From Escherichia coli (GTDB lineage: Bacteria > Pseudomonadota > Gammaproteobacteria > Enterobacterales > Enterobacteriaceae), in assembly GCF_017348835.2 (NCBI RefSeq), contig NZ_CP071375.1: a stretch of DNA of 64,000 bases; one strand, written 5' to 3'. A program made the position numbers. Of this stretch, positions 61,501 to 64,000 are shown piece by piece; within the stretch, counting starts at the first letter, position 1, and every line of letters begins with the position of its first letter.

Positions 61501-64000
61501 GAATACCGGCACGCTCAATAATGTCACCATTAACGAGAACTGTGTCATCAGAGGGAAACTGTCTGCAAACCAGATTGAAGGCGACCTGGTGAAGACGGTG
61601 GGGAAAGCCTTTCCCCGGAATAACAGTTATGCCAGCGGGACGGTAACCGTCACAGTTTACGATGACCAGGGCTTCGACCGGCAGATCATCATTCCCCCGG
61701 TGCTGTTTCGCGGGACGAAACACCAGAATTTCAACAGCCCGAATCAGCAGTCGTACTGGTATTCCACCTGTAAGCTGCAGGTGCTGAAGAACGGGGTTGA
61801 GATTTTCCATGAACCGGCAACGGATGTCAGCCGGGTGTTCTCATCGGTGATAGATATGCCGGCAGGGCGGGGTCATGTCACCCTGACGTTTAATGTGTCG
61901 TCGGCCGGTGCGAACAACTGGACGCCGACAACGTACATCAGTGATTTACTGGTTGTGGTGATGAAAAAATCCACAGCAGGTATCAGTATCAGCTGAATTT
62001 TATAACCCAGAACGGGCGTCAGAAATGACGCCTTTTTTATTGCAGAAAAGCGAGAGGTAATTATGCGTAAACTTTATGCCGCCATTTTGTCCGCAGCCAT
62101 TTGTCTGGCCGTATCCGGTGCGCCTGCATGGGCGTCTGAACATCAGTCCACGCTGAGCGCGGGGTATCTTCATGTCTCGACGAACGTTCCCGGCAGCGAT
62201 GATCTGAACGGGATTAACGTGAAATACCGTTATGAGTTTACGGACACACTGGGGATGGTGACGTCTTTCAGCTATGCAGGAGACAAGAATCGCCAGCTGA
62301 CCCATTACAGCGATACCCGCTGGCATGAAGATTCCGTTCGTAACCGCTGGTTCAGCGTGATGGCGGGGCCCTCTGTGCGCGTGAATGAATGGTTCAGTGC
62401 GTATGCGATGGCGGGCGTGGCTTACAGCCGTGTGTCGACTTTTTCCGGGGATTATCTCCGCGTAACTGACAACAAGGGGAAAACGCATGATGTGCTGACC
62501 GGAAGTGATGACGGTCGCCACAGCAACACGTCTCTGGCGTGGGGGGCTGGCGTGCAGTTTAACCCGACCGAATCCGTGGCCATTGATATTGCTTATGAAG
62601 GCTCCGGCAGTGGCGACTGGCGCACTGACGGTTTCATCGTGGGTGTCGGTTATAAGTTCTGATTAGCCAGGTAACACAGTGTTATGACAGCCCGCCGGTT
62701 CAGGCGGGCTTTTTTGTGGGGTGAATATGGCAGTAAAGATTTCAGGTGTACTGAAAGACGGCACAGGAAAACCGGTAGAGAACTGCACCATTCAACTGAA
62801 AGCCAGACGGACCAGCAGCACGGTGGTGGTGAACACGGTGGCCTCTGAAAATCCGGATGAAGCCGGTCGTTACAGCATGGACGTTGAGTACGGTCAGTAC
62901 AGCGTCATTCTGTTGGTGGAGGGCTTCCCGCCGTCACATGCCGGGACCATCACCGTGTATGAAGATTCTCAACCCGGTACGCTGAATGATTTTCTCGGTG
63001 CCATGTCGGAGGATGACGTCCGGCCGGAGGCACTGCGTCGTTTTGAACTGATGGTGGAAGAAGCGGCGCGTCACGCAGAGGAGGCGAAGAAGAATGCCGG
63101 AGAGGCGGAGACATCAGCGAGGAATGCCGGCATATCAGCCAGTCAGGCAGAAGCGAGCGCGGCAAATGCTGACACTTCAGCAGGGGATGCATCGGAGTCA
63201 GCCCGGCAGGCGGCAGAAAGTGCAGCCGCTGCAAAGCAGTCAGAGGAGGCGTCCTCGTCCTCGGCCTCTGCGGCCGCTCAAAAAGCCAGTGAGTCATCAC
63301 AAAGTGCAGCAGAAGCTGAATTGTCAAGAAAGACGGCAGAAAGTGCAGCCGGTAATGCAGCCAGGGATGCAACGACCGCAGCAGAAAAAGCCCGGGAGTC
63401 AGCAGAAAGCGCACAGTCAGCGGAACAAAGCAGGATAGCGGCGGAAGAGGCCGTAAACCGAATCCCCACCGTGGTGGGGCCACCCGGACCAAAGGGAGAA
63501 CCGGGGCCCGCGGGTCCTCAGGGGCCGAAGGGAGATAAAGGAGAGCGTGGTGACACCGGCCCTGTCGGGGCAACCGGCGAACGGGGACCGGGAGGAGATA
63601 CAGGTCCGGCAGGTCCGCAGGGGCCGAAAGGCGACAGGGGAGAGCGGGGAGAGACCGGGCTGACAGGAAGTACAGGTCCACAGGGTCCAAAGGGAGACAC
63701 CGGGGCAGCAGGCCCGGCAGGCCCACAGGGACCGAAAGGAGAAACAGGTGTGGCTGGCCCGGTAGGGGCAACCGGACCTCAGGGGCCGAAGGGCGACCCG
63801 GGGGAGACGCAAATACGGTTCCGTATGGGGCCGGGAAACATTATTGAGACAAACAGCAATGGCTGGTTCCCGGATACAGATGGCGCACTCATCACCGGAC
63901 TGACCTTTCTTGACCCCAAAGATGCCACACGGGTTCAGGGTTTTTTTCAGCATTTGCAGGTCAGGTTTGGCGACGGGCCGTGGCAGGATGTTAAGGGACT

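Follow-up and report, generated by a model that had tools for sequence, protein, structure and literature searches.

The window analysed here, 64,000 nucleotides of Escherichia coli DNA (contig NZ_CP071375.1 of assembly GCF_017348835.2), stops within the late region of a lambda-like prophage, where the genes for the tail tip protein J and the outer-membrane protein Lom are followed by a side tail fibre gene (Table 1). The fibre gene begins with an ATG at 62727, preceded by the ribosome-binding site GGGGTGA, and its frame is open through base 64000, which gives 424 codons. The first-pass annotation had placed the start at 62717, a position that falls in the T-run of the terminator-like hairpin ahead of the gene. 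As the last 13 codons and the stop lie beyond the window, the full length was read from copies that match the window's final 1301 nt at 100%: the gene has 1314 bp, encodes 437 aa and stops at window-equivalent position 64040. The last 4 residues of the distal domain PfC and an 11-aa tail were likewise taken from these identical copies.

Table 1. Features of the fibre locus, in window coordinates
Feature	Position	Strand	Basis or remark
Tail tip / host-specificity protein J, 1158 aa	58520..61996	+	ORF; near-identical loci annotated gpJ
lom, Ail/Lom outer-membrane beta-barrel protein, 199 aa	62063..62662	+	ORF; annotation; Pfam Ail_Lom in relatives
Terminator-like hairpin (8-bp stem, 7 G-C pairs) and T-run in the gap between lom and the fibre gene	62689..62716	+	predicted, consensus scan only
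Side tail fibre gene, EPclA type, 424 of 437 codons inside the window	62727..64000	+	translation, identical copies, Pfam
Collar (tail-attachment) domain, aa 1-93, core of phage_tail_N	62727..63005	+	about 92% identity to 9E7M_Ta; PF08400
Ala/Ser/Glu-rich helical rod (PCoil), about aa 101-250	63027..63476	+	composition, heptad autocorrelation
Collagen block, 37 Gly-X-Y triplets, aa 251-361, 70% G+C	63477..63809	+	translation; PF01391
PfC distal domain (Phage_fiber_C, aa 363-426), cut by the window end	63813..64000	+	PF06820
Longest exact direct repeat, copy 1, CCTCAGGGGCCGAAGGG, 17 nt	63516..63532	+	
Longest exact direct repeat, copy 2	63777..63793	+	261 bp between copies lost in a natural 8-triplet allele (P0065, locus L003)
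GPQGPKG motif 1 of 5	63513..63533	+	
GPQGPKG motif 2 of 5	63612..63632	+	
GPQGPKG motif 3 of 5	63675..63695	+	
GPQGPKG motif 4 of 5	63720..63740	+	
GPQGPKG motif 5 of 5	63774..63794	+	

Seven independent complete genomes of E. coli, from human and cattle sources and one pig, carry exact (100% identical) copies of the window's final 1301 nt; the gene is annotated there as 'prophage tail fiber N-terminal domain-containing protein', and this identity is evidence against a sequencing artefact. An interruption of the frame within the repeat block had been named beforehand as the observation that would speak against the fibre reading; the window contains none. Two minus-strand ORFs that overlap the collagen block (62950-63771 and 63417-63953) were dismissed as by-products of stop-poor, G+C-rich repeat sequence.

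As a single piece, the whole window had no match in the genome collection searched. Its first 20 kb correspond at 100% to one locus of strain PE164, and its last 24 kb at 99.8% to a different PE164 prophage. The context downstream of the fibre gene is therefore described here from relatives and not from the window's own genome. In the nearest relatives an 89-aa PfC paralogue comes directly after the fibre gene, and tfa is absent there. Two cargo genes, sodC and lom, adjoin the fibre gene or lie just upstream of it inside the window, and genes for T3SS effectors lie downstream in relatives. Among the closest relatives of the prophage, frameshifts affect genes for integrase, portal, capsid or tape measure, and truncated holin genes and IS insertions also occur; given the frameshifts, the window's prophage may itself be defective.

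The first-pass annotation had called the gene stf-like, and we agree, given its position after J and lom and its domain content. The Pfam search assigned residues 1-133 of the fibre protein to phage_tail_N (PF08400, E 6.3e-69), a stretch from residues 251-309 onward to Collagen (PF01391, E 4e-17; 62 bits against a cut-off of 27) and residues 363-426 to Phage_fiber_C (PF06820, E 1.7e-34). The same search gave no match to the Pf2 repeat (PF03406) in this protein, and the collagen domain is single. Within the N-terminal part, residues 1-93 are identical at 86 of 93 positions to the Stf collar chain of Ur-lambda, whose structure was determined in the virion (9E7M_Ta, E 4.4e-52). The protein thus opens with a globular collar and not, as had been thought, with an Ala/Ser/Glu-rich region, which starts only at about residue 101. 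This low-complexity rod contains 48 Ala, 24 Ser and 23 Glu among its 150 residues (95/150 together), and its own sequence has a heptad periodicity, with autocorrelation peaks at lags 7, 14 and 21. Reading the fibre protein sequence directly, we found no signal peptide, hydrophobic leader, lipobox, or LPXTG or other cell-wall anchor. With a PfN, a PCoil, a single Col and a PfC domain, the gene is by its sequence a member of EPclA (EHEC prophage collagen-like protein A, e.g. ECs2717 and Z0982; Ghosh et al. 2012, PLoS One 7:e37872, PMC3368898), and so of an already published protein type.

The distal PfC domain offered few handles. An AlphaFold2 run on a 14-sequence alignment gave a mean pLDDT of 46 and a pTM of 0.29, too poor for a fold search, and a search among 1.84 billion representatives returned 46 matches, mostly fragments or mis-framed ORFs of the same E. 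coli genes. Outside these prophages the PfC family is very small. The few more distant matches were weak ones to a '[VI]Q[VW]R.G.G.W' strand motif within Big_7 Ig-like and similar repeats, for which homology is not claimed. It was also conceivable that a programmed frameshift at a run of seven T (63941-63947), followed by an open +1 frame, leads into the downstream PfC paralogue. We rejected this idea, as the T-run reads GGGGCTGTTT in 3 of 6 loci and the frame in question contains a stop in one locus; Mondal et al. likewise found no frameshift signal. The 89-aa paralogue could be an alternative tip, a cap or a recombination reservoir.

The collagen block had been described as about 100 residues of near-perfect Gly-X-Y triplets at 63470-63800. 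The block is real and its limits were close, yet it is in fact perfect and somewhat longer: all 37 triplets begin with Gly, with zero interruptions over 111 aa. Pro occupies 18 of the 37 X positions (49%) and Asp or Glu a further 35%, while the Y position is taken mainly by Lys/Arg (30%), Thr (27%), Ala (14%) and Gln (14%). The block has a G+C content of 70%, compared with 57% for the remaining ORF and 51% for the window as a whole. By codon position the G+C content of the block amounts to 0.83, 0.74 and 0.54 (first to third), and the excess at the first two positions is therefore a consequence of the Gly, Pro and Ala codons. A foreign origin of the G+C-rich block was rejected, as the G+C excess follows the amino-acid composition.

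On the DNA level the block turned out to be less regular than its peptide. The first-pass annotation had seen a G+C-rich tandem repeat; the richness in G+C is real, but only a degenerate repeat is present and no clean tandem array. Tandem Repeats Finder, the check suggested at the time, does report a repeat, though not a clean one (a 45-bp unit in 2.1 copies with 77% match, and otherwise only tiny 9-bp arrays). A repeat search of the block found a 99-bp period with 74% and 65% identity, and the longest exact direct repeat is 17 nt. The five 21-nt stretches that encode GPQGPKG are identical pairwise at 16-19 of 21 nt, and all 38 pairwise differences among them are synonymous and lie at third codon positions. 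The repetition thus resides at the peptide level, and synonymous divergence prevents the motifs from forming long perfect DNA repeats. Because the repeat has only 2.1 copies at 77% match, because exact repeats do not exceed 17 nt and because an identical allele is present in 7 unrelated genomes, the fibre gene is not a simple-sequence contingency locus or hypermutable tract.

It had further been proposed that the block could vary fibre length, and that the repeat number should be compared among related prophages. We made this comparison on 120 protein-search cluster representatives (90% identity), which share ancestry, and it bears the proposal out. Collagen runs in these homologues have 4, 5, 8, 9, 14-16, 19-22, 25-28 or 32-38 triplets; the 81 intact representatives of the PfC type cover 4-37, and up to 38 occur with another C-terminus. 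Among these 81, 37 of the 40 distinct shorter alleles are compatible with a single in-frame deletion from a 37-triplet form, allowing at most 2 amino-acid mismatches. For 22 of these 37 the breakpoint falls within a repeat at least 6 residues long, mostly GPQGPKGD, as against only 1% of all in-frame deletions possible in the window block, a contrast that is indicative only, as the shared ancestry of the alleles overstates their independence. Natural alleles exist for 7 of the 10 possible pairings of GPQGPKG motifs (26, 19, 14, 8, 25, 19 and 26 triplets).

Two cases could be followed on DNA. A 19-triplet allele (locus L004) is the window allele with 162 bp (63528-63689) removed; there are 0 other mismatches, the junction has 8 nt of microhomology, and the 8-triplet allele of Table 1 corresponds to a deletion exactly between the two 17-nt repeats. 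The coiled coil is variable as well, losing 28, 41 or 63 residues between repeats of the AESA type. The pattern that emerges is that nearly every stalk-length allele represents one in-frame deletion, with its ends joined at one of a few motifs that recur. Length variation in multiples of three residues was noted already in 2012 by Ghosh et al. (PMC3368898), who also list longer forms of 38 and 48 triplets and, in their Table 2, the 37-triplet form in 13 of 15 EPclA copies of O157. The first-pass annotation had regarded the tract as prone to slippage and recombination. The comparison of alleles supports the view that short internal repeats mediate stalk-length changes, but the 37-triplet form is the common and stable one, and the tract is not very unstable, because this form is identical in 7 unrelated genomes and dominant in O157.

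How the length variants arose may be seen in two ways. They might come mainly from homologous recombination or gene conversion between prophage copies, including events of the Red/Rad52 type, and not from slippage, which we take for a real possibility even if we lean against it. Opportunity would not be scarce, with a median of 2 and up to 16 gene places per genome (11 in strain 2011C-4251). The same deletion types are seen on different PfC backgrounds, the collagen and PfC module is about 93.5% identical to that of EPclB from short-tailed Stx2 phages, which amounts to module exchange, and Ghosh et al. also invoked recombination between prophages (PMC3368898). On the other hand, apart from its deletion the 19-triplet allele matches the window allele with 0 mismatches, which is what an event within one molecule should leave behind. 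In E. coli, RecA usually requires about 23-27 bp of homology to exchange DNA efficiently, and the longest exact repeat in the block is shorter than that. Exact homology of at most 17 nt is a better fit to RecA-independent slippage or to relaxed phage recombinases than to classical RecA exchange. Still, the end products fit both routes, and slippage and recombination are indistinguishable from them.

A more general question is what the protein is for. This copy of the gene could be a relic without function, left in a prophage that is decaying, with a frame still intact through recent arrival and not through selection, and with length variants that are products of neutral decay; this would agree with the damaged genes of the closest relatives described above, and with the existence of frameshifted or truncated fibre alleles (P0109, P0113 and P0115, and the further EPclA* entries in Table 2 of PMC3368898). 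We nevertheless find this improbable: the ORF is unbroken and unchanged across 7 genomes, 37 of the 40 shorter alleles retain both the Gly-X-Y register and a complete PfC, and the purely synonymous differences among the GPQGPKG copies (38/38) point to purifying selection on the peptide. Moreover, the gene type works in plaque-forming phages, since the same 437-aa gene is carried by the plaque-forming laboratory phage lambda h434 imm21 and by many Stx1 and Stx2 phages. Among Gram-positive pathogens there are collagen-like proteins that attach to the matrix and the cells of the host (PMC3368898), and virulence cargo adjoins the fibre gene (lom and sodC, and T3SS effectors in relatives), so that the protein might be chiefly a host-directed collagen mimic, serving in adhesion or immune evasion like Scl and BclA and carried as prophage cargo without being part of the virion. 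One homologue (P0090) even bears the database name 'collagen-like surface-anchored protein SclE'; this label, however, sits on a sequence 79% identical to the present E. coli/Shigella protein and is apparently a mislabel. The sequence lacks the signal peptide, lipobox and cell-wall anchor that such a role would call for and has the tail-docking collar of lambda Stf at its N-terminus; the relative EPclB has been located on phage tails by immuno-EM, and expression is reportedly tied to phage induction. We therefore hold a host-directed role to be very improbable indeed.

The reading we prefer, and consider highly probable, is that the gene encodes an EPclA-type side tail fibre of a lambda-like E. 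coli prophage, with the following course of fibre assembly and repeat-mediated length change. Three chains would make up one fibre, whose N-terminal collars would dock at the junction of tail tube and tip as in Ur-lambda. The proximal rod would be a trimeric coiled coil rich in Ala and Ser, about 16 nm long and followed by a hinge, and the thin distal stalk would be the 37-triplet collagen triple helix of about 30-32 nm. The C-terminal PfC would trimerise, nucleate the triple helix and presumably contact the cell surface, and the side fibre would be expected to speed up adsorption and not to trigger DNA ejection. Misalignment between GPQGPKG and similar short repeats, either by replication slippage or by relaxed-homology recombination, possibly between prophage copies of one genome, would produce in-frame deletions and occasionally duplications, so that the stalk may shorten or lengthen in whole-triplet steps. 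Such change would proceed on an evolutionary time scale and would not be a rapid switch. In this account the comparisons are those tested here, the biochemistry is that of close homologues, and receptor binding is what we infer.

Fibres of this kind are borne by the lambda-like and Shiga-toxin phages through which virulence genes pass between strains of E. coli. It is tempting to speculate that the stalk is an evolvable spacer whose length selection adjusts to the thickness of the O-antigen or capsule of different E. coli hosts. Repeat deletions and duplications would then set the distance of the PfC tip from the tail, 4-38 triplets corresponding to about 3-33 nm, and stalk length, not tip sequence alone, would shape the range of strains to which lambdoid and Stx phages adsorb. 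We regard this idea as rather doubtful. For the window itself, the outcome is a clean annotation of an intact EPclA-type side tail fibre gene, a feature that is ordinary and already known; what is added to published work is the analysis of length-variant junctions only, a small refinement.

Several known systems may be compared with the window protein. The Gram-positive proteins Scl1/Scl2 and BclA, like the window fibre, have uninterrupted Gly-X-Y without hydroxyproline and are trimerised by a flanking globular domain, as the window fibre would be, and BclA (1wck) is among the PDB sequence matches of the window protein. In such Scl/BclA-type collagen-like proteins the repeat number differs between strains. 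They are, however, secreted proteins anchored on the surface of the cell or spore, whereas the window protein would be a virion component and lacks export and anchor signals.

EPclB is a closer case (933W L0121, Sp5 ECs1228/ORF67, phi24B gp61). Its last collagen block and PfC have about 93.5% DNA identity with the window gene, and the EPclB fibre is trimeric, as the window fibre would be, with an N-terminal coiled coil and a long collagen-like shaft. EPclB differs in its N-terminal attachment domain, which is that of a podovirus tail, in having two collagen blocks split by a Pf2 repeat, and in its size of 632-678 aa. The protein was found on the tail of the Stx2 phage Sp5 by immuno-EM and is essential in Sp5 (PMC5155283). 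For the related fibres of phi24B/lambda_2B8, an earlier assignment of BamA binding is now doubted.

With Stf of Ur-lambda (PDB 9E7M/9MGH, PMC12617516) the window protein has in common the collar, about 92% identical, followed as in Stf by a linker and a helical rod. Both genes are positioned after J and lom, and the expected role of both is that of an accessory adsorption fibre. In Ur-lambda the collar domains dock at the tube/tip junction, with flexible linkers and three collars per trimeric rod; there are 12 collar domains and four trimeric fibres per virion, and these fibres accelerate adsorption (PMC12617516). Lambda Stf, at 774 aa, has a long rod, a hinge and an OmpC-binding gp37-like distal domain, and it is accompanied by a separate gene for the Tfa chaperone. 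The window fibre has a collagen helix and a small self-trimerising PfC at its distal end instead, and, as far as the next gene can be judged from relatives, a tfa homologue is absent. By sequence, then, only the attachment module is common to the two proteins.

The closest likeness is to EPclA itself, of which up to eight copies are present per O157:H7 genome (PMC3368898). The recombinant protein rEPclA, of the ECs2717 type, is a trimer with the CD signal of a collagen triple helix that melts at 42 C and with an unusual Ala/Ser-rich trimeric coiled coil that melts at about 52 C. In shape it is a hinged dumbbell, with a collagen part of some 30 nm and a coil of some 16 nm, and its PfC is a trimerisation module that renucleates the helix (PMC3368898). 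Because of its homology to rEPclA in the same architecture, the window protein would most probably also form trimers, in which a coiled coil is joined to a true collagen triple helix. Both have the same order of PfN, PCoil, Col and PfC, 437 aa, a 116-aa coil and 111 aa of collagen (Table 2 of PMC3368898), as well as the same preferences for X and Y residues (Table 4 there) and the recurrent GP(Q/P)-GPK-G(D/E) pattern, and both genes occupy the same position in lambdoid prophages. The window gene has about 96-97% DNA identity to the copies in O157 and in Stx phages. There is no substantive difference between them, and the window gene represents another EPclA allele, in a non-O157 background.

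The fibre gene, which encodes an EPclA-type side tail fibre of 437 amino acids, is followed in related prophages by a short open reading frame (ORF) for 89 amino acids, whose start lies only 2 nt beyond the fibre stop codon (GAATGACATGA). In these relatives its whole product corresponds to the distal fibre domain PfC (Phage_fiber_C), and it shares about 34% identity with the fibre's own PfC. Annotations of this ORF vary, as it has been labelled 'alternate tail fiber tip', 'tail fiber assembly chaperone' or simply a C-terminal-domain protein. In the Stx2 phage Sp5 it was found to be non-essential and was proposed to be a reservoir sequence (PMC5155283). 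An IS3-family element interrupts it after 13 codons in E. coli strain 2011C-4251.

Features in and around the fibre locus (L numbers denote loci of relatives)
Feature	Location	Strand	Remarks
89-aa PfC ORF	window equivalent about 64042-64311		just past window end; position inferred from relatives
89-aa PfC ORF in relatives	L004:2654-2923; L005:2717-2986; L009:15403-15672; L007:3743-4012		
Seven-T run (GGT TTT TTT)	63941-63947		within PfC coding region of fibre gene
Antisense ORF, 273 aa	62950-63771	minus	overlaps fibre gene
Antisense ORF, 178 aa	63417-63953	minus	overlaps fibre gene
sodC (Cu/Zn superoxide dismutase)	57859-58386	minus	between tail assembly gene and J
Type III secretion effector genes	L005:3174-4215; L009:15799-17530; L010:4432-7589; L007:4190-6701		3' of fibre locus
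Three clustered phage-borne tRNA genes	35490-35739		anticodons CAT, TCG, TCT

One conceivable way of joining the two products is a programmed frameshift at the seven-T run, and the +1 frame from this run is indeed open through to the downstream ORF in five of the six loci examined. In the remaining locus this frame is closed by a stop codon, and three of the six carry GGGGCTGTTT in place of the run; because of these two observations, a programmed frameshift into the 89-aa ORF is not supported.

The fibre locus is also flanked by cargo. On its upstream side lies sodC, a virulence-type cargo gene typical of such prophages. Further downstream, related prophages carry type III secretion effector genes (nleG, tccP2/espF-like, espV, nleB2, nleC, nleH and nleF), and effector genes are found 3' of the fibre locus in the laboratory phage lambda h434 imm21 too. 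The fibre gene is thus a marker for the edge of an effector cargo region.

The whole window (1-64000) is mosaic in comparison to every complete genome searched. Positions 1-20000 are 100% identical to one locus of E. coli PE164 (the ompA/helD/yccS side), while 40000-64000 show 99.8% identity to another, different prophage of the same strain, a pattern that illustrates late-region exchange among co-resident lambdoid prophages. The tRNA cluster, whose CAT member is annotated as tRNA-Ile in relatives, has a counterpart in related prophages that is bounded by the Q antiterminator region on one side and by the lysis genes on the other. This interval is the usual site of stx; in the annotations of two related prophages, no stx is recorded at the equivalent position.

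As for the repetitive part of the fibre gene itself, the products of the two long antisense ORFs are rich in Pro, Leu and Arg and amount to the translated complement of the repeat, and these ORFs are in all likelihood artefactual, owing to the scarcity of stop codons in G+C-rich sequence. The Ala/Ser/Glu-rich coiled coil (63027-63476) differs in length between homologues, with in-frame deletions of 28, 41 and 63 residues that join AESA-type repeats. The 41-residue deletion is not a multiple of seven, which is contrary to the published generalisation.
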